A DNA stretch of 64,000 nt, from positions 1 to 64,000 of IMG/VR virus record IMGVR_UViG_3300047160_005790; one strand, given 5' to 3'. The stretch comes from a virus (Duplodnaviria; Caudoviricetes). The position numbers and the translations under genes were made by a program. The notes under the pieces are model-generated. The model made no database searches. It had not been told where the DNA came from and saw only the letters and a list, made by a program, of their open reading frames with translations. Positions 1 through 57,847 of the stretch are shown here, piece by piece (the first letter of the stretch is position 1; each line of letters begins with the position of its first letter).

Positions 1-57
1 GCGCGTGACAGGGACTCGACGCCAATCCGGAGAATCCGCTAGTATCGACCCCGAACT

Positions 58-100
58 GGATCCAAACAGGATCCAAACAGGATCCAAACAGGATCCAACA
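58..100 (+). repeat. 11-bp tandem repeat (GGATCCAAACA x3 + GGATCCAACA)
   Basis: Read directly: copies at 58, 69, 80 and 91 with no spacers. Confidence 0.95.
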
Positions 101-118
101 GAAAGTTGGCACGGCACT

Positions 119-778
119 ATGCCACGAGTAGCTACAGAACTGACAGTCAAATCCTTCCTCGAACTCCTGTACAGCAACGCCATGCGGATCGAGTACGGCA
201 GAACAAAGGATCAAGGCCCGACGTACATCGTCGCCCTGCCCAGACCCGTGTACAGAGCGATCTACCGGCTCGTCCCCCGAGCACGTCCGTACTTGAGGGC
301 AGCGGCACAAGTCCGCCCGCTCACGGACACGATCTACGTTCAACTCAGCAGCCGACTCGTTTCTCGACTCGCAGTTCTCGGCGACGACTTGGCACAGGCA
401 GAACAAGATCGCCGCGACGGCAAGGACATAGACACAAACCTGGCAGACAGAGAACCCAGGTACAAACCAGGGTCACAACCGCAAGACACAAACCAAGGTT
501 ACAACCGCAAGACACAAGCTGAGCTAGCCGCAGACTTGCTAGCGAACAAGGCTTTCACAGAGTTCTTGCTCGAACGGACAACCTACTTCACAAGATCAGA
601 CGTCAGGAACTTCGGCAACCTTCAATACAAGGAGGCGATCGAGCTAGTCGGCGTACTTCGGCAGTTCAAGTTCGTCAAGGACCCCGGCAACCACCGCTTG
701 TACATCCAACCGGCGTTTCGCAAGCTTCTGCGAGACATTCACACCGTTCAAGAAAATCTAAACACGATCGGAGGATAG
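119..778 (+). CDS. Protein with C-terminal winged-helix domain paralogous to the primase-MCM helicase C-terminus
   Basis: ORF 5..778, probable ATG at 119. FTEFLLERTTYFTRSDVRNFGNLQYKEAIELVGVLRQFKFV...IQPAFRKLLR aligns by eye with LATFLRDQGHFRRQDVEEMLNYAREEANATINHLWALKMV...ISPTLHALLR of 53787..56618. Confidence 0.65.
   Translation: MPRVATELTVKSFLELLYSNAMRIEYGRTKDQGPTYIVALPRPVYRAIYRLVPRARPYLRAAAQVRPLTDTIYVQLSSRLVSRLAVLGDDLAQAEQDRRDGKDIDTNLADREPRYKPGSQPQDTNQGYNRKTQAELAADLLANKAFTEFLLERTTYFTRSDVRNFGNLQYKEAIELVGVLRQFKFVKDPGNHRLYIQPAFRKLLRDIHTVQENLNTIGG
462..513 (+). repeat. 26-bp tandem duplication inside the CDS (non-triplet period)
   Basis: acaaaccagggtcacaaccgcaagac / acaaaccaaggttacaaccgcaagac, 24/26 identical. 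Confidence 0.85.
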
Positions 779-783
779 CCGCT

Positions 784-1086
784 ATGGCAACTGACGCCAA
801 CACTACATCCTACCCTGACGTCAGCCGACGCAACCTTGCTGAGATTATGGCCCGTAATCCTGGCCTTGCAACGTTCCTCTTCCAAACAAGGTATAAGGGC
901 TTCACAAGGAGGGGCATGGAAGAGATGCTCAATTACAGCCGTGCCGAGGCAAATTACACGATACACACCCTGTGGGCTCAAGGGATGATCTCTAAGATAG
1001 AGGGCCGCATACATTCTGAGATCGCCCTCATCCTTTTCGTCGCAATTCTTCTCAAAGAGGATCTCTATGTTCATCGCAACTTCTAA
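784..1086 (+). CDS. Stand-alone winged-helix protein, paralog of the primase-MCM helicase C-terminal domain
   Basis: Shares PGLATFL, EEMLNY, EAN.TI..LWA, KI.G.I and LL.EDL with the last ~70 aa of 53787..56618. Confidence 0.8.
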   Translation: MATDANTTSYPDVSRRNLAEIMARNPGLATFLFQTRYKGFTRRGMEEMLNYSRAEANYTIHTLWAQGMISKIEGRIHSEIALILFVAILLKEDLYVHRNF

Positions 1087-1312
1087 CGCACCCAACCAGA
1101 AAAAGCGCCTCATACTCGGCCTCAGCGAGACCAACATCCTCAAGCTCCGCAACGACATGCCCATTCACAGAACACTCGGCGGCCCCGACTCGCCAGTACA
1201 GATTCCGGGCCTCGAAGATTGGGAGGTCCTCATAATCGGCCCGGAAGATTCGATACGCTTCATGATCCAAACCGGCGTCTCTGAAGATCAGATCGCAGAG
1301 TTCCAGAAGTAG
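1067..1312 (+). CDS. Hypothetical protein (81 aa)
   Basis: ORF in operon-like packing with its neighbours. Confidence 0.6.
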   Translation: MFIATSNAPNQKKRLILGLSETNILKLRNDMPIHRTLGGPDSPVQIPGLEDWEVLIIGPEDSIRFMIQTGVSEDQIAEFQK

Positions 1313-2440: not shown

Positions 2441-2638
2441 GTGCCGGGCGTCTCGCGGCAGTGCGCATGCTTCGCGTGCTGGAACAGCAACAACCCGGAT
2501 CGCCCGGTGCCCGAGGGCACGCTCGAACGAGGGCCGGACGAGATCTGCTGCTACTGCGGCAGGCCGACCAATTCCGGCATCTACACCCGCGTCTACAACG
2601 ACGACGTTCCCTACCCGCAGACACAGGAGGACGCATGA
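2441..2638 (+). CDS. Small Cys-rich, putative metal-binding protein
   Basis: CACFAC and CCYC motifs; abuts both neighbours. Confidence 0.55.
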   Translation: MPGVSRQCACFACWNSNNPDRPVPEGTLERGPDEICCYCGRPTNSGIYTRVYNDDVPYPQTQEDA

Positions 2639-3924
2639 CGGTCATCAGCACCAGCCACTACGACGACCAGAAGACGCCGAACCCCGGCAACGGCTGGCCG
2701 GGCGGCATCGCCTACGACGCCAATCTCGGCCTCGATCCGCAGTTCTCGATCGTCGCCGAGCCGCACGGGGCAGTCAAGAACATCGCCCGCTACCGATCGA
2801 CGAACGGCGCCAGTCAGTTCGGTTGGGGAGAGGGCCTAGAGTCCTACGTCTGGAAGGACAGCCAGGCCAGCGCGCTCATCACCGAGGGGGCGGACGAGTG
2901 GTACGGCTTCGGGCTGCGGACGGAAGCCGACTTCGTTGATCCGATTCACTTCCTAGCGATCATGCAGTTCTACTGCTTCGACTACGCCTGGAAGGGGCCG
3001 GGCGGCATAACGCCGTTCGTGGGCTCGCCACCCGCACTCATGAGCCTCGGCGGGAACGGCCTCTACATCAGCAACAACGCGGGGCACTGCACACCGGCTA
3101 GCGGCGGCGGCGCCAGCTGGGAGGTCAACCGTTGGGTGACGATCGTGCCGGGGACGGCGTTCAAGTGGGGCGTCTGGACCGACGTGATGATGCACATCGT
3201 TTGGTCGAAGGGGCCGTCCGGCAGCATTACGACCTACTACCGCCGCGCAGGGCTCGACAAGGACTTCGTGCTCGGGCAGGCGGTGAACGGGCCGACGCTG
3301 CGGTGGACGGAGACCTACAACAACGGCAACTCGCCGGGCATCGGTCTCATGAAGCAGGGCATTTACCGCGGCTCGGGCTGCAAGGACTCAACTGGGCAGC
3401 CGTACGTGAATACCGGGGGCAACGTCGGTCATTACGTCGCTCCGAACTGCCAGTACGGTCTCTTCGAGTCGCAGCCGGACACGATCATGTACGCCTCCGG
3501 CATCATCCGGGCGACGACGCAGGCCGAAGTGCTCGCCTGGCTCGGGGCCGCGGCGGTCAGCCCGCCGCCGAGCCCACCCAGCCCGCCGCCGCCTAGCCCG
3601 CCCAGCCCGCCCAGCCCGCCCAGCCCACCCCCGCCACCGCCGCCTCCCAGCCCGCCCGCCGCCGACCCGGTTGCGCTTATCGACGCGGCTACCGACGCAA
3701 TTCACAAGACGACGACGACCTACGCCTACTGGTACGGGCGGCTCACCGGCAGTATCAAGCCGAAGTACACCGCCGCTCAGCTCGCTTCGACGCAGTGGCA
3801 CCTGGCCTTCCAGGCGTTGCTCGACGCGAAGAACGCAATCGCCGCGAAGCCACTCACGCTACGCGAGGAACCCGACATGGAGGCGTACCTCGACGCCATT
3901 CAGTTCTCGGCAGAGGACGAATGA
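2635..3924 (+). CDS. Polysaccharide lyase-like beta-jelly-roll protein with Pro/Ser linker and helical C-terminal domain
   Basis: ATG at 2635 after GGAGG. W.D...HIVWSKG...G and MKQGIYR resemble PL13/PL20-like folds; the N-terminal ~300 aa are paralogous to 36586..39042. Confidence 0.6.
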   Translation: MTVISTSHYDDQKTPNPGNGWPGGIAYDANLGLDPQFSIVAEPHGAVKNIARYRSTNGASQFGWGEGLESYVWKDSQASALITEGADEWYGFGLRTEADFVDPIHFLAIMQFYCFDYAWKGPGGITPFVGSPPALMSLGGNGLYISNNAGHCTPASGGGASWEVNRWVTIVPGTAFKWGVWTDVMMHIVWSKGPSGSITTYYRRAGLDKDFVLGQAVNGPTLRWTETYNNGNSPGIGLMKQGIYRGSGCKDSTGQPYVNTGGNVGHYVAPNCQYGLFESQPDTIMYASGIIRATTQAEVLAWLGAAAVSPPPSPPSPPPPSPPSPPSPPSPPPPPPPPSPPAADPVALIDAATDAIHKTTTTYAYWYGRLTGSIKPKYTAAQLASTQWHLAFQALLDAKNAIAAKPLTLREEPDMEAYLDAIQFSAEDE

Positions 3925-28423: not shown

Positions 28424-29014
28424 GTGTCCACTATGGACGAACCGGATCCTAACACTTTCGAGGCAATAGCGGCTGAACCGAGTAGGCCGTCTGGTCAAGA
28501 CGACGGCCTGCTCACCGCCCTTCGGCAGCAGCGCGACGCACTCGCTTCGACGCGCGACACCTATGTGCCGATTCAGGGCTACGGGGAGAACACCGGCATC
28601 TCGCTCTGGGCGCATTACCGGCTGCTCGATGCGATTGAGTTAGACGCGATCGGTCGCAAAGTCGCTCAAGAGTTTCGCTCAAACCGGCAGCAGCGCGAGC
28701 GCATCTTGTGGGCGGGCGTCGATGCAATGATCGAGGCTTGCGACGGCATCTTCTACCAGATTCAGGGTGAGAGCGAGAAGCATATCATGACGATCGACGG
28801 CGTGCCGATCAACGGCTTCAACGTCGGTATCGCTCGGGCGCTTGGTTTCGAAGACAAGATCGCCCCTCATTCACCGGAACGTTCGATCGTGCTCGGCGTG
28901 TTCGGGAACAACGTGTCTTCTGTTCAAATTCATACGATGCTTCTGGGTCGTTGGATGGCCAACACGACGATCGACGTGACCGAAGAGTTCTTGGAGGCCG
29001 GGGGAAACCTCTAG
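28424..29014 (+). CDS. Tail assembly chaperone
   Basis: Between tube and tape measure; ends at a slippery site. Confidence 0.75.
   Translation: MSTMDEPDPNTFEAIAAEPSRPSGQDDGLLTALRQQRDALASTRDTYVPIQGYGENTGISLWAHYRLLDAIELDAIGRKVAQEFRSNRQQRERILWAGVDAMIEACDGIFYQIQGESEKHIMTIDGVPINGFNVGIARALGFEDKIAPHSPERSIVLGVFGNNVSSVQIHTMLLGRWMANTTIDVTEEFLEAGGNL
29002..29008 (+). other. -1 programmed ribosomal frameshift heptamer G GGA AAC
   Basis: X XXY YYZ in the chaperone frame; the -1 frame stays open to 29223 (GKPLASEMIEA...). Confidence 0.85.
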
Positions 29015-45864: not shown

Positions 45865-46065
45865 TCACATCGTCCTCGCACCGATTGTGAAAGCGATTCT
45901 GTGAACTACAAAGCATCCTTGCCCTGACACCTTTATCCAGCCGTACCCGGCATCAAATGTTTTGCCAGGCCAGAGAAGGCAACGATCGGTGCGCTCGATC
46001 TTCCCGCCGATAGCGAGCAAGAAAGTGGCGCGAGCTTCTCTAGTAATCGGCTTGAAGTTTGGCAT
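45865..46065 (-). pseudogene. Truncated HNH homing-endonuclease remnant
   Basis: CLLWPG...GYG.I.....VHRIAF is the HNH_3-type N-terminus; it stops before the H-N-H core; AT-richer; TAATG-coupled to dnaE. Confidence 0.7.
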
Positions 46066-49000
46066 TAATCTGCAAATGGGTCAATTATCCAAAGATCAGA
46101 CACATCTATTTGTCGCGTCGCTGTGTAGCCTTTTTTAACTCCTCGACAAAGCATGAGATCGTGACCGAGTCGCATGCTCCAAAGTGCTTCTCGGAACTTG
46201 GGATAGCGATACCTGTCGATCCTGAGGCTTAGCTGGTCAGTTTCGTCATCGCCGATACAAACGAGCCATTTGCTGAGGTGCGGGTCTTTCACTTCCTCCG
46301 GCTTCAGCTCGATGCCGGTCTTCGCGCGGTTGAACTCGAACAGGTCGCGTTCGTTCCGCATCTGAATAGCGCCGAGCCAGATAACCGGGATGTCTTTGCT
46401 GCGGTGATACGGCAGGTCGATTGAAACGGTGACGGGCCGCGGCACATCCTTACCGAGCTTCTTCTCTCTGATCTCCTGCTTGACGTGAGCGATAGCCTTG
46501 TCGAGCCACAGCGCGTGAAACGGATCGTCGCTTTCGCCGAAGGCTACGATGTTTTTGATCGTCTTGTGGCCGATACCCTTCACTTCGATCAGGCGGTTCC
46601 AGTCCACGTGATGTAGCTTCGGGTTGTGCTCGCCCTCGGCCTTGCGCCATTCGATGATCGAGGTGGCCGTCACTTCGCCTATGCCCGGTACCTGCGTGAA
46701 CCCGGCGTACACCTTGCCGACGCCCCGGCGCCAGGTTCGTCCGCTACGGCGGACGTTCGGCGGCACGACATCGACGGACGGCCGGTCGCAAAGCGGGTTG
46801 CCGCGAACGGCGTCGCGGATCAGCATCGCGAGCTTGTCGCCCTTGCCCTGCTCGGCGGCGCGCGTACGGTGAGCGACTGAGGCGCGACCGCCGCGGATCT
46901 TGAACATCTCGGTGTAGAAAAGCTCCGGGTGATGCTGCTTGAACCACATTGTGTGAAAGCCGATCATCGTGTAGGAGTAGGCGTGAGCAGCGTTGTTGTG
47001 ATGAACGACGCCGTTCGCGACGAAGTTGTGTTCGTGATCGAGCATCTCTAGCTCGTACACCCATTCAGTTTCGAGCCGCGCCGAAACGTTGACGACGGAG
47101 CTGATCGTTGTCGGCCTGCCCTTCGAGTCGCGCCTACGGCGTATCCCCATACCGTAGTCGAACTTCTTGTGATGGTGATTACACAGGTACATCATGTTAC
47201 TCGGCTTGTGGTAACGGGCGTAATCGCCATTGAAGTCGTCAAGCGTCAGGATATGAGCGTATTCCTCGCGACCGTGACAGGCGCCGTTCGTACCGGCATG
47301 TTCACAAACGCCCTTCGCTCGTTCGAGCACGGCAGCCTTCGCGACGCTCGCCAACTCAGTTCGTCCGTCGATCCAGCTGATATTGCCTTCGCCCGACTGA
47401 AAGCCCTGACCTTCGTACGTCGTGCGCATCGGCTGTTCGCGCTTCGCCGATGGCTGCGAATAACGATACGTCGGGTCTTGACAGATGACTTCGTCGCCCG
47501 GCTGAAGTTCGCCGAGTTCTTTGTAGCCTCGATCCGTCAAGACGCGGTGTGGCAGCGTACCGGCGAACGTCATGCCGTTTTCAAGCGTCACGTCGTACAC
47601 GATTTGCGGAACGTCGGAGCGCTTGATCGAAAGGAACTCGGCGGGCCGTATCCGGCAGTCTTCTGCCGACAACGACTGAATTTTGATGCGCTTACCGTTC
47701 TGGCCGTAGCGGAGCTTCGCGCCGAGCGATGTGTCGCTGTTGTATGCCTCCCAAAGCTCTTTGAGTGTGTAGCGTCCGTCGTGGTGTCGATTTGCCCCGC
47801 CGGTTTGTATAACGGCGTCGCCGGTTAGGCAGAATGCGTAAGAGCCCGCTGTGATGCACATGCCCCAGATTTTCGCGGCTAGCTCGTCGCCCATGTCGGG
47901 GTGTAGCTCGCGGGCGCCTTCGAGCGCGAGTTCCCACTTGCGGTTGAACGCCTGCTCACCGATCTTACGGCTGATGATGCGTCGGACTTCGGCGCGGTGC
48001 GTCCAGTCGAAGTTGAAGATCTCGCCGAGAATGCGAAGGATCTGCTCCTGGTACACGATCTGGTACTGTGTGTTCGCCGTGATCTTTTCGAGCGACGGGT
48101 GAATCAAGTCGGGCTTCTTGTTGCCGGCTTTGATGTCGATGTACTCGTTCGCGGCGCCGTTGTGAAGCGGGCCGGGGCGCGCGAGTGCGTTTACGTCGGC
48201 GCACTCTTTGAAGCTCGTCGGCACGAGTGCGCCGCAGATATATCGCATCGCGCGGCCTTCGAACTGGAAGACGCCGAGGCAGTCGTTGACTCGGAACCCG
48301 GCGAGCGTGCGCTCGTCGTCGAGCGGGATGTTGTACAAATCGTCGAGCTTCCAGCCCATCTCTAGGCGGCAGTTGTTCAGCATCGTCATGTTCGACAGGG
48401 CGAGAAAGTCGAGCTTCAAAAGACCCTGCTTCTCGGCGTCGTACTTGTCCATCGACACGACTTGCTGTACGCCTTCGTCAGTCTTGCGCTCGTAGACGGC
48501 GCACACGTCGGTGATCGGGCCGGTCGAGACGACGATGCCCGCGGCGTGTACGCCGAAGCCGCGATAGTTGCCTTCTAGCTCCATGGCGATGCCGAGGTTC
48601 GGATGTCGCTCGAATACGCCGCGCGCCGTATCGAACGTCAGCACAGTGTCCTCGATCGTCGCCGAAGCGCGCAGGTCGCCGCTCGACCGCTCGATCAGCA
48701 CATTCTTGACCTGGTCTACCTCGAACTTCGGGATCTTGTACACGCGAGCCACGTCGTCCAGCGAGTTCTTGGCCTTGTAGCCGGTGAACGTTCCGATGTT
48801 CGATACGCACTCGTCGCCGTAGATACCGGCGAGGTACTCGCGCACCTGGTAACGAGTTTCGCTGTCGAAGTCGATGTCGATGTCGGGCAAGTCCTGTCGG
48901 CTCGGGTCGATAAACCGCTCGAACACCAAGTCCTCGTACAGCATCGGGTTGACCTCGGTAATGCGAAGTAGCCAGCAGGCGAGTGAACCGGCGCTACTGC

Positions 49001-50306
49001 CGCGCGCGGGGCCGACGGCGATACCGCGACCTTTGTCGCCGTGGTCCTTCGCCCAGCGTATCGCGTCGCCGACCACCAGAAAATAGTCCACGAAGTCTTT
49101 GTCCTCGATGACCTCGCACTCGCGTTCAAGTCGCTCGCGGTACCGGCGCTGCTCACCCCGAGGTAGGCGGTCGCAACGCCGGTATCGCCAGCCCTCTTCG
49201 AGCAAGTGTCGCCAGTATTCGACCGGCGTGGAGAACTTATCCGGCAACGGGAAGCGAACCATAGGCAGGATCGGCAGTTCGACGTTGCAGCGGTCGTAGA
49301 TTTCTTCGGTCGAGAGTACGGCCTGTACGGCTTGCTTCTTCGTGAGGCCGGTCGCTTGTAGCTTGCGCACCACCGAGGCGTCGTTCATCGGCGGGCAGAG
49401 GTTCGCCGCGTAGCCCCAGTCTCGCGCTTGCTCTTCTACGGTGTGCTTTCCGGATCGGACTGCGTGAAGTACCTGCTGTAGCTCTTTCTCGGTAGGCATT
49501 GTGTAGTGGCAGTCGAATGTTGCGACAAGAGGAATGTGTAGTTCCTCGCTAAGGTCCGCAATAAGCGCATTTGCTCGACGGGTCTCAGCAAGCTCCGGAA
49601 ATGCCTGTACTTCCAAGTAGTAGTTACCGTTGAAATTTGCCTTAAAGCGACGAGCAAGAGCCTTCCCTCGTTCGTAGCTCGCATCCTTGGGGGCCACAAG
49701 CTTGCCTCCCACCAAGGATGTGAAGAGCGCTGAACCTTGACAACCGGATAGCACCACCAGGCCGTCGCGGTGATCGCGCAGCATGCTCCAATCCGCCGTA
49801 GGTTCATAGTAGTAGCCCTCCGCGTAGGTTCGGGACACGAGGCGTAACAGGTTGTTGTAGCCGCGAGGCGTCGAAGCGAGCACCGTGAGGTGGTTCTTAC
49901 GTTGCGTAGCTTCCTCGCCGATTTTGCCTGTGTACAGCTCGACGCCGAAGATCGGCTTGACCCCCGCCTTCTGAGCAGCCTTCTCTAGACGTACGTGCGA
50001 CGAGACGTTGCCATGTTCGGTCATTGCGAGCCCGCGCATGCCTAGCTCAGTCGCTCGGCGAACGTGAGCTTCCGGCAGCTGGTAGCCGTCGAGGTACGAG
50101 AAGGTACTGTGATGGTGAAGCGACACGAAGGTCATCTCACGTGAGCGGTTCGGCAGGCGCCGCGTCGCACGGTCTTTGCGAATCCACGGATACTGTTCGT
50201 GCTCGCACTCGCCGTCGCGATGAACTTCGATACGAGTCTTGAGGCTGTCGAGGCTGTCATCGTGCGTAAGCGTGCGTGTGCGACGCGGTGACGTATCAGT
50301 CGCCAA
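46065..50306 (-). CDS. dnaE: DNA polymerase III alpha subunit with intein (start TTG 50306 or ATG 50135)
   Basis: PHP motif LHHHSTFSYLDG; GPARGSSAGS; PDIDIDF; GVHAAG; KLDFL; ALARPGPL. Confidence 0.97.
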   Translation of the reverse strand: MATDTSPRRTRTLTHDDSLDSLKTRIEVHRDGECEHEQYPWIRKDRATRRLPNRSREMTFVSLHHHSTFSYLDGYQLPEAHVRRATELGMRGLAMTEHGNVSSHVRLEKAAQKAGVKPIFGVELYTGKIGEEATQRKNHLTVLASTPRGYNNLLRLVSRTYAEGYYYEPTADWSMLRDHRDGLVVLSGCQGSALFTSLVGGKLVAPKDASYERGKALARRFKANFNGNYYLEVQAFPELAETRRANALIADLSEELHIPLVATFDCHYTMPTEKELQQVLHAVRSGKHTVEEQARDWGYAANLCPPMNDASVVRKLQATGLTKKQAVQAVLSTEEIYDRCNVELPILPMVRFPLPDKFSTPVEYWRHLLEEGWRYRRCDRLPRGEQRRYRERLERECEVIEDKDFVDYFLVVGDAIRWAKDHGDKGRGIAVGPARGSSAGSLACWLLRITEVNPMLYEDLVFERFIDPSRQDLPDIDIDFDSETRYQVREYLAGIYGDECVSNIGTFTGYKAKNSLDDVARVYKIPKFEVDQVKNVLIERSSGDLRASATIEDTVLTFDTARGVFERHPNLGIAMELEGNYRGFGVHAAGIVVSTGPITDVCAVYERKTDEGVQQVVSMDKYDAEKQGLLKLDFLALSNMTMLNNCRLEMGWKLDDLYNIPLDDERTLAGFRVNDCLGVFQFEGRAMRYICGALVPTSFKECADVNALARPGPLHNGAANEYIDIKAGNKKPDLIHPSLEKITANTQYQIVYQEQILRILGEIFNFDWTHRAEVRRIISRKIGEQAFNRKWELALEGARELHPDMGDELAAKIWGMCITAGSYAFCLTGDAVIQTGGANRHHDGRYTLKELWEAYNSDTSLGAKLRYGQNGKRIKIQSLSAEDCRIRPAEFLSIKRSDVPQIVYDVTLENGMTFAGTLPHRVLTDRGYKELGELQPGDEVICQDPTYRYSQPSAKREQPMRTTYEGQGFQSGEGNISWIDGRTELASVAKAAVLERAKGVCEHAGTNGACHGREEYAHILTLDDFNGDYARYHKPSNMMYLCNHHHKKFDYGMGIRRRRDSKGRPTTISSVVNVSARLETEWVYELEMLDHEHNFVANGVVHHNNAAHAYSYTMIGFHTMWFKQHHPELFYTEMFKIRGGRASVAHRTRAAEQGKGDKLAMLIRDAVRGNPLCDRPSVDVVPPNVRRSGRTWRRGVGKVYAGFTQVPGIGEVTATSIIEWRKAEGEHNPKLHHVDWNRLIEVKGIGHKTIKNIVAFGESDDPFHALWLDKAIAHVKQEIREKKLGKDVPRPVTVSIDLPYHRSKDIPVIWLGAIQMRNERDLFEFNRAKTGIELKPEEVKDPHLSKWLVCIGDDETDQLSLRIDRYRYPKFREALWSMRLGHDLMLCRGVKKGYTATRQIDVSDLWIIDPFAD
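46995..47831 (-). mobile_element. 279-aa intein with HNH endonuclease domain
   Basis: Block A CLTGDAVI, block B TLPH, HNH C..EYAHI...N...LCNHHH..FD, C-terminal VYEL...NFVANGVVHHN; flanks rejoin as SYAF|NAAH. Confidence 0.92.
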
Positions 50307-52444: not shown

Positions 52445-53268
52445 CCTAGTACCTCCCGGCTTACGTTGTATGCAACGTCAAAGGCATCGTTCAGCAAAAC
52501 GCCGTGACGCCACTCCGCCCAGCGACCGGCGTGTACGAGCCCTCGCCAGCATGTACACGTGTTGCCGATCGCCTTTACGCCTTCGATGACGCCGTCGCCC
52601 TCGAAGCCGTAAGTGCTTTCGACGCTGCAACGGTCGCCGAGGATCGAGTAGCGATACCACACGTCCTCCGGCCGACCGTTGTAGATGATTACCTCGCGCC
52701 CCGCTTCGCCGTCCGGCAGGGCGAGCGATTTGATCCAGTACGGCACAGACTTGAACGTATGCTCGTCGTCGGCGCAGAGGAAACGTCGCGGCAGCGTATT
52801 GATAACGACTCGGAACAGCTTGAGAAAGTCCTCGATCATGCCCGGCTCGATCAGCAAGTGATGAATGTTTCGCTCGTAGCGTTTCCACAATTGATCGTAC
52901 GCCCAAATCGCGTTCCAGCTCGGATAGCTCTGGCTGTAGTTCTCCCAGCCGGTCGCGTGCGAGGAGTCGCCGTACACCTTGCGAGCGTAGCCCTCCGGCG
53001 TGCCCATACGAACGACGTTCACGAGGTTGTCGGCGTAGCTCGGCGTCAGCTCTGGCACCGCGCGTCGTAGGTGTAGCGAGCCGGGGATCTCGGACTTCTC
53101 TTTGATGCTGTAGACGAGCGGTTCGCCGCCCGCGAGTCGTACGGCGTGCGCCGCGAGCAACCCTGCCGGGCCGCAGCCGAGTATCGCGATGTCGTTCTTT
53201 CGCGACGTTCCTGGTTTGGGCCGGGCGATCGGCGGCAGCGTCGCTTCCCAGAGCCTCGTCTGACTCAT
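52441..53268 (-). CDS. FAD/NAD(P)-dependent oxidoreductase
   Basis: IAILGCGPAGLLAAHA Rossmann motif; C-terminal HAGRWAEW. Confidence 0.8.
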   Translation of the reverse strand: MSQTRLWEATLPPIARPKPGTSRKNDIAILGCGPAGLLAAHAVRLAGGEPLVYSIKEKSEIPGSLHLRRAVPELTPSYADNLVNVVRMGTPEGYARKVYGDSSHATGWENYSQSYPSWNAIWAYDQLWKRYERNIHHLLIEPGMIEDFLKLFRVVINTLPRRFLCADDEHTFKSVPYWIKSLALPDGEAGREVIIYNGRPEDVWYRYSILGDRCSVESTYGFEGDGVIEGVKAIGNTCTCWRGLVHAGRWAEWRHGVLLNDAFDVAYNVSREVLG

Positions 53269-53543
53269 TGCAACGGGCTCCCTTCGTAGCGCCCGCACAC
53301 CAAGCCGAGCAGGAACATGTGGAATAGCATCGAGCCGATCGCCGGTTCGAGTTGCGGGTCCATGGCTCGCCAGGCTTGGTTGTAGCGCTTGCGTAGTACG
53401 TCGATCAGGTGGTGCTGAACGTTCGCGTACGCTTCCTCGCTGACCTTTAGCTGCGCCATTTGCCGAGGAACGCTGCCCGGCGCGAGGCCGTAGATCAGGC
53501 GGAGCGTACGCTCGCCGCGTTCCATCGCTTCGGCGTCGATCAT
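53265..53543 (-). CDS. Hypothetical protein
   Basis: ORF with 4-nt overlap. Confidence 0.55.
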   Translation of the reverse strand: MIDAEAMERGERTLRLIYGLAPGSVPRQMAQLKVSEEAYANVQHHLIDVLRKRYNQAWRAMDPQLEPAIGSMLFHMFLLGLVCGRYEGSPLQ

Positions 53544-53547
53544 TCGA

Positions 53548-53790
53548 TCACCCCCTCTTGCTCAGCATTCTCTTCACGTTCGCCTTCCTGCCGCGCATGG
53601 CCCGCAAGCGTGCACGCTTCTGCGAACTGAGGCGCTTACGGACGGTGACCGGCGCGCGAGTTTGTTGTCGCTGCTCGGGCTTCGGCGGCTCGGGCAACGG
53701 ATCGAGATTGCGCAGGAAGACATTTTCGTCGATCTTCTTCGGCTTCTCTGATTTGTTGCGTCGAAGAATGCCGATGGTCCGCTTCTTCAT
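53548..53790 (-). CDS. Small highly basic protein
   Basis: ATG after GGAGG; Arg/Lys-rich. Confidence 0.55.
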   Translation of the reverse strand: MKKRTIGILRRNKSEKPKKIDENVFLRNLDPLPEPPKPEQRQQTRAPVTVRKRLSSQKRARLRAMRGRKANVKRMLSKRG

Positions 53791-56618
53791 AGGTCTTCCT
53801 CCCGCAACAGGGCGTGTAGGGTCGGAGAAATGCGAATGTCGCCGCTGATCTTCGTGACCATTTTGAGCGCCCACAGATGGTTGATCGTGGCGTTCGCTTC
53901 CTCGCGGGCATAGTTCAACATTTCCTCGACGTCCTGCCGTCGGAAGTGACCTTGGTCTCGTAGGAACGTTGCGAGCCCAGGGCGCCCCTGTAGGAAGTCG
54001 ATCGTCGCCTCGCGGTTGTCGAGCGCGGTTTGTATGTCGCCGCGCAGCTGCTTCGAGCGTTCGGCGTAGCCGAACGTCGGCATGTTGTACAGGTGATCCA
54101 TGAAGCGAACGGCGTCACGAACGTGCGCCGGGGTGATGAGCAGTAACTCGTTCGACTTGTCGCTGCTGAAGGTGCGGGCCGCGAGCGCCGCCGAGACGCG
54201 GGCGATTTTGACCCGAATGTCGGCAGCTTGTACGAGCGGCGGGTCCTCGACGTAGCGCCTGCCCATATCGTTCGCCGCGGCCAGCACCGCTTCCTCGGCG
54301 CCGTCCGTCCAAATCACCTGGTCAGCTTGTCTCGTCCACGCCCACATCAGTAGGTTGTGACAGGCTTCGCTCGTGTAGGTCGCCGTACCGCTCGGCCGCG
54401 CCCGGTTGATGTCCTCGGGGTTGACGTCACCGATCGCGAGCGCCACCACCAGGTCGAAGCGGGCGATGTCCTCAGGGTTGCCGATCAGCGGGCCGAGCGC
54501 TTGTACGCCGTAGGTGAAGTCGGCCATCTTCGCGTTACGCGGGTTGCTCATCCAGATCAGCCGCGTTCGAGCGTACGTCACTTCTTGTTGAATCTTCGTC
54601 AGACGGGCGACGCCTGCCGTTCGCACGTCGCTCATGCGAGAGATCTCTTCGGGCGAGAGGCCGCTCGCCTCGTCAAGTATCACGAGGCGGCGATCGTTGA
54701 TGGGGATGGCGCCCCACGTCACCGTCCAATCGCGACCGCCTATTTGTTGCAGGCCGCCGACGATACCGGCGAAGCTCGCACTTTCACCACCAACGATCTC
54801 GCCAGCCCCGAGATGTCTGACGAGTTGAGTCGCCGCCTCGCTCTTGCCGGTTCGCGTGTCCCCGAGGATGAGGCTTTCGAGCCACGCCTTCCGAATCATC
54901 TGCCCCGCAAACTTAAAGGAGAGTACGCTGTGAAACGTCAGGTCCATGACCGCATGCATTTCGACGCGCCCGATGATCTTCGTTACCTGCGCCGCTAGCT
55001 CGCGGTTGATCTCGACTAGCTTCCTGAGCGGCCCTCGGCTGTCCGATCGGAAGCGGCTCATGAGCTTTACGCGCTCGGGCGTCACTTCGAATCGGTCAAC
55101 GCTCGTTTCGAGGCGCTCTAGTTCCCAGGCCAGGAACTCGTTGACCTGCGTATTCGGGTTCGCGAACAACGCGCCGGTGACATCGACAGTGTTGTTCGGC
55201 AGCGTGTCGTGGTGCCCGACGTTCGTGATCTTGATGTTCTTATAGTCCTGGGCCTTCGTGCCGTCGCTCTGGTCGATACTCGGTCGGCCGAACAACTGCT
55301 CGACTGCCTGATGTTCTGTAACGACGATGGAGAGTTTCTTACAACTCGGGGCGCCGTACTCCTGCCGCACGAGGTCTATGACGTTCTTCGTCGGCGTGTC
55401 GAGCATAGCGAGTATCGTTGGACTTTCCTTCGGTATCTCGATGACCGCGTCGCCGCTGGCCATTAACGGGCAAGTGTCGCAAGCCTTACCGGCGTCTCGC
55501 GAACACGTTAGGCGCGCGACTTTCGGCAGCGAGTAGCCGGGCTCCTTGCGACCCTTGATCGTGACCTGAATGTGAAGCGGCTTGCCGAGGTTGCGGGCGT
55601 CGAAGCTCTCTAGCACCGTCGCCGATATGACACCGACACCGTTCGTGTTTTGCTCGGTCTGCTTGTCCCAGGGCTCTGCCGTCGCGAGCAAGCGCTCGAA
55701 GTCGTTGCGGTCGTACTCGCGCCAGAAGTCGCTGAGGTCTTGGCCGTGCTTCGGTACGCGCGGGTACGGCAGGGCGATTACGCGAACGTCGGCGTTCTTG
55801 CCGAGGATGTGGCCGAGCTTGTTGTTCGCTTTGAAGCCTTTGTCGTCGCAGTCGTGCGCGAGGTAGACGACCATGTCCGAGAACAACTCGGTCCACTTGC
55901 CGTTCCAGGAGTCGGCGGCGCCGGTGCGCGTGATCGCCGGGTAGCCGTTCATGATCGTGAGGATGATGTCCCACTCGCCCTCGCCGATGATGATGAACTC
56001 CGGCTTCGGCTTGATCTGTTGCATCGGGAACAGCGTCGGGCGGTTGTGCCCGGTAAGTCCCCAGATCTTGCGCCGGTTCGGGCCGGGGCGCGGGTTGTAG
56101 CGACGTACGTTGATCAGCTCGCCGTCGAAGTCGCGTACCGGGATCGTGTAAATGCCTTTGCTGCGATCCCAGCCGATCTCGAACCTGATGATGCCGTCGG
56201 TCGTTATGCCGCGTTCGGCAATAAGCGCCTCGCGCTCGGCGTCGCTATTCATCAACACCGAGTGCCAAGCGCTTACTCGCGCCTCGCTCGGTTCTTCGGG
56301 CGGCTTGTCGCTGGTGCGATGCACGCCGCCGTTCGAGGAGACGGCGCCGATCGGCGGCCGCAACCATTCTTCCTGCCTCGCGATCAGGCTGCGAACCGAG
56401 CCGCCCCCGCAACCAGCGTTGCAGTAGTAAACGCCCTTGTCAACGTTGAGCGTTGCCGATCGAACTACGTCCGCGATACCTTTGTCGCCGTGTAGCGGGC
56501 AATGTAGGTTGATCTCGCGCGTCGGCGGATCATCATACGTGTTGAGGTAGGAAGCATGGTCGCCGCCACCTTCGAGGTAGGGCCGCAACAGATCAAGTTG
56601 TCGTTTAGTTATCGGCAT
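53787..56618 (-). CDS. DnaG-type primase-MCM helicase fusion
   Basis: Zn finger CPLH...CNAGC; TOPRIM GEGEWD and HDCD; Zn motif C...CDTC; Walker A GDTRTGKS; Walker B ILDE; SNP; arginine finger RFDL; C-terminal winged helix. Confidence 0.85.
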   Translation of the reverse strand: MPITKRQLDLLRPYLEGGGDHASYLNTYDDPPTREINLHCPLHGDKGIADVVRSATLNVDKGVYYCNAGCGGGSVRSLIARQEEWLRPPIGAVSSNGGVHRTSDKPPEEPSEARVSAWHSVLMNSDAEREALIAERGITTDGIIRFEIGWDRSKGIYTIPVRDFDGELINVRRYNPRPGPNRRKIWGLTGHNRPTLFPMQQIKPKPEFIIIGEGEWDIILTIMNGYPAITRTGAADSWNGKWTELFSDMVVYLAHDCDDKGFKANNKLGHILGKNADVRVIALPYPRVPKHGQDLSDFWREYDRNDFERLLATAEPWDKQTEQNTNGVGVISATVLESFDARNLGKPLHIQVTIKGRKEPGYSLPKVARLTCSRDAGKACDTCPLMASGDAVIEIPKESPTILAMLDTPTKNVIDLVRQEYGAPSCKKLSIVVTEHQAVEQLFGRPSIDQSDGTKAQDYKNIKITNVGHHDTLPNNTVDVTGALFANPNTQVNEFLAWELERLETSVDRFEVTPERVKLMSRFRSDSRGPLRKLVEINRELAAQVTKIIGRVEMHAVMDLTFHSVLSFKFAGQMIRKAWLESLILGDTRTGKSEAATQLVRHLGAGEIVGGESASFAGIVGGLQQIGGRDWTVTWGAIPINDRRLVILDEASGLSPEEISRMSDVRTAGVARLTKIQQEVTYARTRLIWMSNPRNAKMADFTYGVQALGPLIGNPEDIARFDLVVALAIGDVNPEDINRARPSGTATYTSEACHNLLMWAWTRQADQVIWTDGAEEAVLAAANDMGRRYVEDPPLVQAADIRVKIARVSAALAARTFSSDKSNELLLITPAHVRDAVRFMDHLYNMPTFGYAERSKQLRGDIQTALDNREATIDFLQGRPGLATFLRDQGHFRRQDVEEMLNYAREEANATINHLWALKMVTKISGDIRISPTLHALLREEDL

Positions 56619-56626
56619 AGCTGAGA

Positions 56627-56658
56627 GGAGGGGGCCGGGATGGAGACCGACCCCCTCC
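56627..56658 (-). promoter_or_regulatory. 12-bp hairpin just upstream of the primase-helicase start
   Basis: GGAGGGGGTCGG / CCGGCCCCCTCC on the minus strand. Confidence 0.5.
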
Positions 56659-56662
56659 GCCG

Positions 56663-56938
56663 TCAGCCGGACCGTTTCGTCAACCTACTCGCTCTGATTC
56701 CGAGCTTGCTGTACATCGCCTTGCGGACTTTGTAGAGCTCTTGTGCGAACGCACGAGGCTCAACGCGATACCGCCTCGCGTCGTACTCGCGGACGATTTC
56801 CTCGAACAGTTCATCGGTCGAGTCGTCCGCGACGTCCCAGGCGACGGTCGTAGGGTTGACCAGATTCATAGTGAGCTGGTACCCGTTGAGGGAGAGCACG
56901 CTCGCCAGTGCGAGATCAGTTGTCGAGTAGCCCGACAC
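56663..56938 (-). CDS. DUF5659-like small protein
   Basis: YSTTDLALASVL..NGY. Confidence 0.55.
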   Translation of the reverse strand: MSGYSTTDLALASVLSLNGYQLTMNLVNPTTVAWDVADDSTDELFEEIVREYDARRYRVEPRAFAQELYKVRKAMYSKLGIRASRLTKRSG

Positions 56939-56953
56939 CGTTGCTTGGTCGTA

Positions 56954-57847
56954 CTACTCGTCGCCTTCAAACGGGTTGGAGCCGTCGTCCTCGCGCAAAA
57001 CGGCGACCAGCTTGTCCTTCGAGAGTCGGCCGCTCGGCATGTCGAGCTTGCGGTCAGCGATCTCGTCCTTCAGCTCCTTGACTTCCCACTCGTCGTAGTC
57101 GTCCTCTGGAGCCGCTGCCCCGGCGCCGTCGCCGCCGCCCGACTCGTCGCTTTCGGTAAGGGCGTCGATGTACTTCTGCGTCGTCTTGCGGCCGCTGATT
57201 TCGAGGCCGCGCTCCTCGGCTTCCGCCTTCAGCTCATCGAGCGACCACGCCGAGTAGTCCTCCGGCTCGCCGCCGTCGGCGGCAGCGCCGTCGCTGCTCT
57301 GCGCCTCGTCGTCCTCGACAAGAATGCCGATCAACTTCGCACTCGTAGCGCGGCCGGTGATCTCGAGCCCGCGCTCCCCGATCTCTGCCTTCAAATCGTC
57401 GAGGGACCATTCCTCGTAGTTCTCCGGCCCCTCGCCGCCATCGTCGCCGTCGGCAGGCTCGTCGCCGTTGTCGCCGCCGCGCAACGGCAGGAGGGTGCCA
57501 GCGCGGGCGACGTAGTTGCCTTCGTACGAGTCGCCGACGACCTTGACGCGCATCTTCTTGCCGACGATCTTGTCGGTGTCGATCTCGCCCTTGTCGCGTA
57601 GGCCAAGTGCCTTCACGAATTCCTTGAGCTTCCAGTCGCTGCGCTGGCTGAGGCCGATGTACGTGTGAACAGGCACATAGTCCTCGTCCACGAACTCCAG
57701 CGTCAGATGAATATCGTTCGCCGGGTCGCCGTTGGTCTTCTCGGTGCGCTGCTCAGCGTCGCGAATCGCCACCGTGTAGGTGCCGACCTTTGCGTGATCG
57801 CCGCTTCGTGACTCTACGTCAGAAACATCATACTTTATGCGTGCCAT
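56954..57847 (-). CDS. ssDNA-binding protein (DUF669-like) with three C-terminal SAP/HeH-like repeats
   Basis: GTY.V.I...E...W.LKEF..ALG; three Y..WS...LK.E...RGL...G....L...L units. Confidence 0.7.
   Translation of the reverse strand: MARIKYDVSDVESRSGDHAKVGTYTVAIRDAEQRTEKTNGDPANDIHLTLEFVDEDYVPVHTYIGLSQRSDWKLKEFVKALGLRDKGEIDTDKIVGKKMRVKVVGDSYEGNYVARAGTLLPLRGGDNGDEPADGDDGGEGPENYEEWSLDDLKAEIGERGLEITGRATSAKLIGILVEDDEAQSSDGAAADGGEPEDYSAWSLDELKAEAEERGLEISGRKTTQKYIDALTESDESGGGDGAGAAAPEDDYDEWEVKELKDEIADRKLDMPSGRLSKDKLVAVLREDDGSNPFEGDE

Follow-up and report, generated by a model that had tools for sequence, protein, structure and literature searches.

Phage MCM-like primase-helicases are known. The present study deals with one clonal, uncultivated phage (Duplodnaviria; Caudoviricetes) in which the C-terminal winged-helix domain of such an enzyme seems to have been copied twice into small genes of its own. 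The window, i.e., the whole stretch of 64,000 nucleotides analyzed here, comprises bases 1-64000 of the 88,284-base IMG/VR virus record IMGVR_UViG_3300047160_005790 (CheckV completeness 100%). At its left end lie two open reading frames (ORFs) on the plus strand, ORF-A (119..778, 219 aa) and ORF-B (784..1086, 100 aa), and on the minus strand of the same window lies the gene of a DnaG-type primase/MCM-like AAA+ helicase of the BcMCM family (53787..56618, 943 aa), the tail of which both ORFs resemble.

By analogy, the closest functional precedent for this arrangement, closer than MCM and its loader, would be the alpha and Cnr proteins of P4. In P4 alpha, a DnaG primase and a helicase are followed at the C-terminus by a winged-helix domain which binds the origin (PMC2777425, PMC4889955), and the plasmid copy number of P4 is controlled by the product of the small gene cnr (PMC8628076). 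The likeness of the window helicase to P4 alpha lies in the same order of modules, i.e., a DnaG-type primase, a hexameric AAA+ helicase and a C-terminal winged helix, and the likeness of the small genes to cnr lies in a separate small protein, which in P4 controls replication copy number. The paper on the P4 domain structure, Yeo et al. 2002, reportedly carries in its title the regulation via homo- and heterodimerisation of winged-helix proteins, and is said to propose that Cnr is itself a winged helix. The two systems differ in several respects. The P4 alpha helicase belongs to SF3, whereas that of the window is MCM-like (SF6), and neither a sequence match nor a top-ranked structural match between the P4 origin-binding domain (PDB 1ka8) and the window tail was detected. 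Moreover, in contrast to the P4 pair, the small proteins of the window are demonstrable sequence paralogs of the helicase tail.

Proteins of the BcMCM type (BC1863 of the Bacillus prophage phBC6A51, gp47 of Microbacterium phage Krampus and gp50 of Arthrobacter phage Wollypog) are homologous to the window helicase over the core and the C-terminal domain. BcMCM was shown biochemically to be a 3'-5' MCM-like helicase fused to a primase (PMC2715239, PMC3273815), and BC1863, annotated as 'MCM domain family protein', matches the prophage MCM homolog studied under that name. The homology with BC1863 extends over residues 337-938 of the window helicase (tblastn, E 3e-64), Krampus gp47 is 35% identical to it over 96% of the length, and the 'DNA primase/helicase' of Microbacterium (Krampus-like) and Arthrobacter phages is also homologous. 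The N-terminus of BcMCM is a primase-polymerase of the archaeo-eukaryotic primase (AEP) type, whereas the window helicase begins with a DnaG-type primase of Zn-ribbon and TOPRIM domains. The tail is not described as a winged helix in the BcMCM papers and, unlike the window phage, Krampus, Wollypog and phBC6A51 possess no free-standing tail copy.

The assignment of the window helicase was based on comparisons of a family profile with the PDB, on Pfam and PHROG matches and on tblastn. As a single sequence it reached 18.4 bits against the Pfam MCM family (PF00493), for which the cut-off is 23.3 (E 1.2e-3), and matched MCM2 in the PDB weakly. With a profile of 30 family sequences, DnaG primases were matched in the PDB at positions 8-307 (E 6e-17) and, at positions ~520-720, MCM2-7 and archaeal MCM were matched in their AAA+ core (E 3.7e-10). 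PHROG 18685 and primase PHROGs were also matched, and in Pfam no match to DUF3987 (PF13148) was obtained at E values up to 1, where only MCM appears. Judged from these comparisons, 'primase-MCM helicase', the label given to the protein in an earlier note on this DNA, seems a fair one as far as the AAA+ core is concerned; the likeness to MCM was detected in that core only, and the primase is of DnaG type.

A winged helix that likewise forms the very C-terminal end of an MCM-type motor, behind the AAA+ and lid region, is known from archaeal MCM (Sso, Mth), where it attenuates ATPase and helicase activity and is truncated and wingless (PMC4357721). The earlier note had equated the copied domain with this archaeal one, and here only a part of the claim stood: a winged helix is indicated by the models and fold searches described below, but its equation with the archaeal MCM domain was not supported. 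No PDB profile match was obtained over profile positions ~840-938, which represent the tail, the MCM matches stopping before it, and the window models, in contrast to the wingless archaeal domain, have a complete wing, formed by a beta-hairpin, and one more helix at the C-terminus. Neither an MCM winged helix nor P4 1ka8 appeared among the structural matches listed, an absence which excludes neither of them.

The SaPI Rep helicases recognise iterons via their C-terminal winged helix (PMC9371898). They and SCCmec Cch are self-loading helicases of mobile elements, of SF3 or MCM-like type, which in some cases carry a fused primase; as in the window helicase, a winged helix forms the C-terminus. 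Their iterons are located just downstream of rep, whereas none flank the window helicase gene, and no free-standing winged-helix paralog has been described for them. An SF6 helicase that is joined to an AEP or DnaG primase and ends in a winged helix is likewise a known architecture among phages (PMC4889955). Publications describing sequence paralogs of the helicase winged helix as free-standing genes were not found, which agrees with the earlier note, where no described phage system of such a build was known.

Three copies of one winged-helix domain

The window helicase's C-terminal domain (residues 832-943; 53790..54125, minus strand), the putative parent of ORF-B, consists of a linker helix and a winged helix and was kept at the C-terminus in 29/29 full-length relatives and in 80/80 IMG/VR loci; it has no name in Pfam. 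An independent profile hidden Markov model (HMM) was built from the last 115 residues of the 29 other full-length helicases, with the proteins of this phage excluded, and was compared with every six-frame ORF of 40 aa or more that the 88-kb record contains (1,289 ORFs). The helicase (E 1e-38), ORF-B (E 1.2e-14) and ORF-A (E 3.3e-9) were matched, and the next best ORF had an E value of 1.8. A second profile-search pipeline returned the same three places in the genome and no others. Exactly three copies of the domain are thus present in this genome, far beyond chance.

ORF-B, which was called on 13 contigs, is the free-standing copy nearest to the tail of its own helicase. The near co-linearity with the helicase end that the earlier note had read from the letters was borne out by BLASTP, in which residues 26-94 of ORF-B were aligned with residues 880-943 of the helicase, i.e., its last 64 residues, with 54% identity over 70 columns (E 8e-16); the motifs PGLATFL, EEMLNY, EAN.TI..LWA and LL.EDL are present. 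The HMM match covers residues 14-82, and the putative recognition helix of ORF-B is nearly identical to that of its own helicase. The conserved linker motifs PPLVQAANVR and FGY, which precede the tail in helicases of ~920-1030 aa, are not found in ORF-B. The AlphaFold2 model of ORF-B has a mean predicted local distance difference test score (pLDDT) of 78 and a five-helix winged-helix topology, with helices at residues 12-24 and 28-34, a short strand, helices at 42-49 and 53-65, a hairpin at 69-78 and a last helix at 80-98.

The C-terminus of ORF-A, taken in the earlier note for a more diverged third copy, was recognised as such by the HMM, with a match of its residues 114-208 to HMM positions 19-112 (winged-helix domain at 458..775, plus strand). 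Pairwise comparison by BLAST gave a weak match to the helicase tail (30% identity, E 0.004) and no significant match to ORF-B. In the AlphaFold2 model, ORF-A consists of an N-terminal domain, a disordered linker and the winged helix, the folded core of which (residues 126-218) is predicted with a pLDDT of 90-96 and shows a helix-turn-helix and a hairpin in the same layout as in ORF-B. The N-terminal domain (~residues 1-105; 119..433, plus strand) is predicted as alpha-beta-beta-alpha-alpha-beta-alpha (pLDDT 54-82). It appears unrelated to the helicase, because an HMM of the last 260 residues of the helicases matches only the winged-helix part of ORF-A. By the same HMM, homology of ORF-A reaching into the helicase lid region, which had been suggested by one BLAST row, was rejected. 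No Pfam or PHROG match and no homolog was found for the N-terminal domain, and a feature search of the ESM-Atlas returned no usable match; its structural neighbours are weak (LAGLIDADG/WhiA-like, TM 0.44-0.50) and can serve as a lead only.

In the AlphaFold2 models of both proteins, a three-helix bundle with a helix-turn-helix is followed by a beta-hairpin wing. Only winged-helix proteins were returned by Foldseek and by an independent structural search against representatives, the best being repressors of the ArsR/SmtB, MarR and HxlR families (Z 8-9.5), and the sub-threshold Pfam matches of the family tails were similarly all to winged-helix families (MarR_2, 5e-5; TrmB, Crp, IclR and Phage_rep_O). 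According to these models, the domain is a complete winged helix that includes the wing and has a fifth helix. Profile and structure searches, the check that the earlier note had proposed, therefore came out in favor of homology and of a winged-helix fold. ORF-A and ORF-B are separate genes for paralogs of the helicase C-terminal domain, and not helicases.

Retention, distribution and origin of the copies

The interpretation which we prefer, and to which we assign a probability of about 0.5, is that the tail of the phage's own helicase has functional, lineage-specific paralogs in ORF-B and in the C-terminal half of ORF-A, i.e., motor-less mimics which would bind the ligand of the tail and modulate the initiation of replication. 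This role is proposed by analogy with the tails of P4, SaPI Rep and archaeal MCM. Both proteins would keep the helix-turn-helix core and the wing without the motor, and would bind either DNA of the control or origin region or a protein partner, possibly the helicase tail itself through winged-helix dimerisation. Such binding could tune the timing or the place of helicase loading or activity, and in ORF-A the mimic would be extended by a second domain, N-terminal and unrelated. The roles proposed in the earlier note, i.e., those of an origin-binding initiator, a loader or a dominant-negative regulator of the phage MCM, are candidate roles likewise.

Alternatively, the two ORFs could be evolutionary debris, that is, reading frames still open but without function, left over in a quickly evolving accessory block where 3' ends of the helicase gene were partially duplicated or recombined illegitimately; we consider this improbable. 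Between ORF-B and the helicase tail, nucleotide identities at codon positions 1, 2 and 3 were 0.55, 0.68 and 0.33, respectively, with nonsynonymous divergence (dN) of ~0.5 and saturated synonymous divergence (dS >2). Second positions being the most conserved and third positions saturated, the pattern is that of proteins under constraint and speaks against a fragment in decay, with the caveat that part of it stems from the helicase branch. Against debris stand also the confidently folding winged-helix core that both diverged copies keep, the ribosome-binding site that ORF-B has of its own, and the tight packing of the operon. The ribosome-binding site, GGAGGA (770..775, plus strand; read from the sequence), is located 8 nt before the ATG of ORF-B within the last codons of ORF-A, and only 5 nt separate the stop codon of ORF-A (776-778) from the ATG of ORF-B (784). 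The next gene in the ORF list, an orphan of 81 aa without a family match (1067..1312, plus strand), overlaps ORF-B by 20 nt and is placed in the same operon because of this overlap. The same gene order (219, 100, 81 and 63 aa) is given by the gene calls on ENA contigs.

The debris explanation draws, on the other hand, on the diverged C-terminal helix of ORF-B, on the atypical GC content and skew of the block, on the presence of other intragenomic duplications, on the absence of the genes outside this clonal phage, and on the dependence of the ORF-A frame on a recent 26-bp duplication. This tandem duplication (462..517, plus strand; 2.2 units, 24/26 identical), detected by Tandem Repeats Finder (TRF), encodes the disordered linker of ORF-A, with pLDDT <50 at residues 107-125. 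When one unit was deleted in silico, the N-terminal domain and the winged helix fell in different frames, and the N-terminal domain ended as a protein of ~125 aa. The fusion in ORF-A, or a possible slippage switch, thus seems to hinge on this repeat. ORF-A was called on 5 independent metagenome contigs. Its start must be the ATG at 119, as the number of 11-bp repeat units upstream varies from contig to contig, which would shift the frame, and the reading frames of both ORFs are fixed by the homology. Eight sequence-available contigs from other samples (seven ENA, one JGI) were 100% identical apart from one 11-bp repeat unit, and population variation is therefore uninformative here.

Searches for the copies elsewhere gave a consistent picture. 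Neither ORF had a tblastn match in INPHARED, only this same phage was found with them in a word-indexed collection of 5.8 billion proteins, and a search of IMG/VR by sequence pattern was likewise negative. When 1.84 billion representative proteins were searched exhaustively with a profile, 77 matches were obtained, 29 of which were the other full-length helicases; 46 of the 47 short matches could be aligned end to end with the C-termini of helicases, no more than 19 residues at the N-terminus being left unaligned, and are therefore pieces of genes cut off by the edges of contigs. The remaining short match (P0080) was rejected as a free copy, being a PAS-domain false positive. Within 10 kb of the helicase gene, no second copy was present in any of 80 IMG/VR loci, the helicases of which have 36-56% identity with the one studied here. 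Whole-record searches were also carried out on 42 related records, comprising 38 of the IMG/VR set (25 of them at least 90% complete), G001, Krampus, Wollypog and phBC6A51. The linkage with the MCM gene in related phages, on which the earlier note had staked its proposal, failed in these records: the helicase was found in 42/42 and a free-standing copy in 0/42, the domain occurring once per helicase gene, while the same search finds all three copies here. The free-standing copies are a lineage-specific feature and not a conserved system. The phage that carries them is unusually large for its group (~90 kb vs. 57-64 kb in relatives).

A related IMG/VR record, G009 (IMGVR_UViG_3300046533_000294, 129,757 b; loci L041 and L056), contained two helicase genes separated by ~65 kb and probably represents either a concatemer or two related genomes joined in a chimera.

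The affinities of the two copies differ. ORF-B is nearest to its own helicase, with 59 bits compared with at most 47 for the 109 others (29+80), and over the HMM columns it is 46% identical to its own helicase and 38% to the next, with a median of 30%; the tail of the own helicase is itself 57% identical to the tails of its nearest relatives. The simplest reading of these sequence identities would be a duplication within the lineage, followed by fast evolution or by continued co-evolution. A maximum-likelihood tree of 32 tails, in which 15 forks remained open, the branches of ORF-A and ORF-B were long and ORF-A, ORF-B and P0038 were grouped at 90/84, was not used for the origin of the copies owing to its poor resolution.

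Several observations weigh against the mimic interpretation. As the free-standing copy is absent in all 42 related records, the copies must be dispensable for the helicase as such. They are orphans located in a block of low GC content (~53% vs. 64%), and ORF-A is not particularly close to its own helicase, so that it is either older or of other origin. ORF-B is without the conserved C-terminal P..LH.LLRE motif of the family and without 13 residues of helix 1. Both copies are basic (isoelectric point, pI, 9.7), whereas the helicase tail is slightly acidic (pI ~6; family range 4.5-10.3), and for this reason their ligands may differ. No iterons were found at the helicase gene, only short two-copy repeats at chance level being present in 53250-53850 and 56560-57000, and the iteron search detected no enriched motif common to the helicase locus and the region of ORF-A and ORF-B.

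Control region and regulatory alternatives

ORF-A and ORF-B are the second and third genes of a rightward operon which starts with a gene of 226 aa upstream of them. Beyond this gene lies ~1.8 kb of divergent, repeat-rich DNA (positions 420-2440 of JGI contig L014) with (TGGT)n arrays, a 73-nt repeat, GAACGA repeats and an array of the 11-bp sequence GGATCCAAACA, and the replication genes are located on the leftward strand. The 11-bp tandem repeat (54..98, TRF, no strand assigned) has ~4 copies and ends 20 nt 5' of the ATG of ORF-A, at the edge of the divergent control region. Within the window the exact motif is confined to this array, its sole other match, at 28444, having one mismatch. Copy number is ~4 in the window and in JGI contig L014 and 3 in ENA contig L012, and this is the only polymorphism among the contigs. 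The low-GC block, at 1-1900 of the window, has a GC content of ~50-55% and a strong A-over-T and C-over-G skew on the plus strand; it spans ORF-A, ORF-B and then the small orphan genes of 81, 63 and 117 aa.

An inverted repeat with TGGCA..TGCCA arms was observed at 107-124, across the start codon of ORF-A. It could be an RNA hairpin on the start codon or an operator-like palindrome.

The position of the copies beside such a region, with the 11-bp array directly upstream of ORF-A, would also suit neo-functionalised transcription factors, i.e., dimeric DNA-binding regulators of the adjacent divergent promoters (e.g., an early/late switch) with no remaining link to the helicase. We regard this possibility as rather unlikely, although more than one feature speaks for it. 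The nearest structural neighbours of the ORF-B model are the dimeric repressors mentioned above, with 80-94 aligned residues and the same topology of five helices and a hairpin; ORF-B has the five-helix ArsR topology and a hydrophobic last helix which would be suited to dimerisation, and both copies have moved to a basic pI. However, the identity of ORF-B to the ArsR/SmtB, MarR and HxlR repressors is only 5-17% and their metal or ligand sites are missing from it, so that the fold is held in common without family membership, and a common fold does not show function. The putative recognition helix of ORF-B is nearly identical to that of its own helicase, and ORF-B stays nearest to this helicase among 106 tails, which would be unexpected if specificity had drifted freely. 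Moreover, scans for sigma-70 promoters gave nothing or matches at chance level, and no promoter-like sites were detected.

In a further explanation, ORF-A and ORF-B would serve as weapons in conflict between phages or between phage and host, and not as regulators of their own helicase: the free domains would be dominant-negative decoys, aimed at the MCM-like helicases of related phages in competition (superinfection exclusion) or at a factor of the host. In its favor, the genes are fast-evolving accessory genes specific to this lineage and lie in an early-type block of small orphan genes, and the helicase-tail family is widespread in related soil phages which could co-infect. Nevertheless, ORF-B is most like its own helicase and not those of other phages, and no match to known defence families was obtained, with no systematic search made (PADLOC was not run). 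This explanation is considered highly improbable.

Returning to the mimic interpretation, a more elaborate form of it, for which we see a slim chance, is a hetero-oligomeric, motor-less 'origin module', in which the winged helices of ORF-A and ORF-B would label the control region with its repeats and, through winged-helix contacts with the helicase tail, recruit the enzyme or gate it. If this were true, the phage would have built its own initiator or loader by duplicating a piece of its helicase.

Genome context and implications

The IMG/VR record is not closed: contig L014 bridges its right end (87687-88284) to its left end (1-253), and the 1,726 bases between the record ends (L014 599-2324, at the junction of base 88284 of the whole record, G000, with window base 1) are not represented in the IMG/VR record. 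The gene order across the junction is the same on three ENA contigs. The full map is ~90 kb and is circular, permuted or terminally redundant, and because contigs bridge the junction, ORF-A and ORF-B are not located at a physical genome end. The missing piece carries (TGGT)n arrays, the 73-nt repeat (x2) and the Ala/Lys-rich gene of 226 aa, and the assembly was probably broken at the repeats of the junction. An actinobacterium is the likely host of the phage.

The 226-aa gene (L014 1234-1914, plus strand) is paralogous to a gene of 192 aa (L010 16477-17055, minus strand, corresponding to G000 84761-85339), with 30% identity (E 2e-13). The former lies inside the divergent region and the latter ~1.8 kb past its left edge, so that the pair brackets the left part of the region; neither has a Pfam or PHROG family. 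The sequence AGGAGGGTACC is present 15 times in the whole genome and appears to be a ribosome-binding leader common to many genes. To the right of the low-GC block, a 65-aa ORF (2441-2638, plus strand) with two CxxC pairs, zinc-ribbon-like, is followed by a 429-aa protein (2635-3924, plus strand) with a Pro/Ser-rich linker; the former had no family match in Pfam and PHROGs and the latter none in PHROGs, which alone were scanned for it. In the ORF of a DnaE-type polymerase III alpha subunit (46065-50306, minus strand, 1,413 aa), an intein-like insertion with HNH-type motifs appears to be present, judged by reading the translation.

As for the copies themselves, a domain that has been copied twice into free-standing, apparently selected genes beside a control region offers a natural handle on the role of the helicase tail, and whatever the copies bind would be a strong candidate for the ligand of that tail. 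If it is true that motor-less copies of helicase end-domains recur in unrelated groups of phages, domain mimicry could be a general means of tuning or sabotaging replicative helicases.

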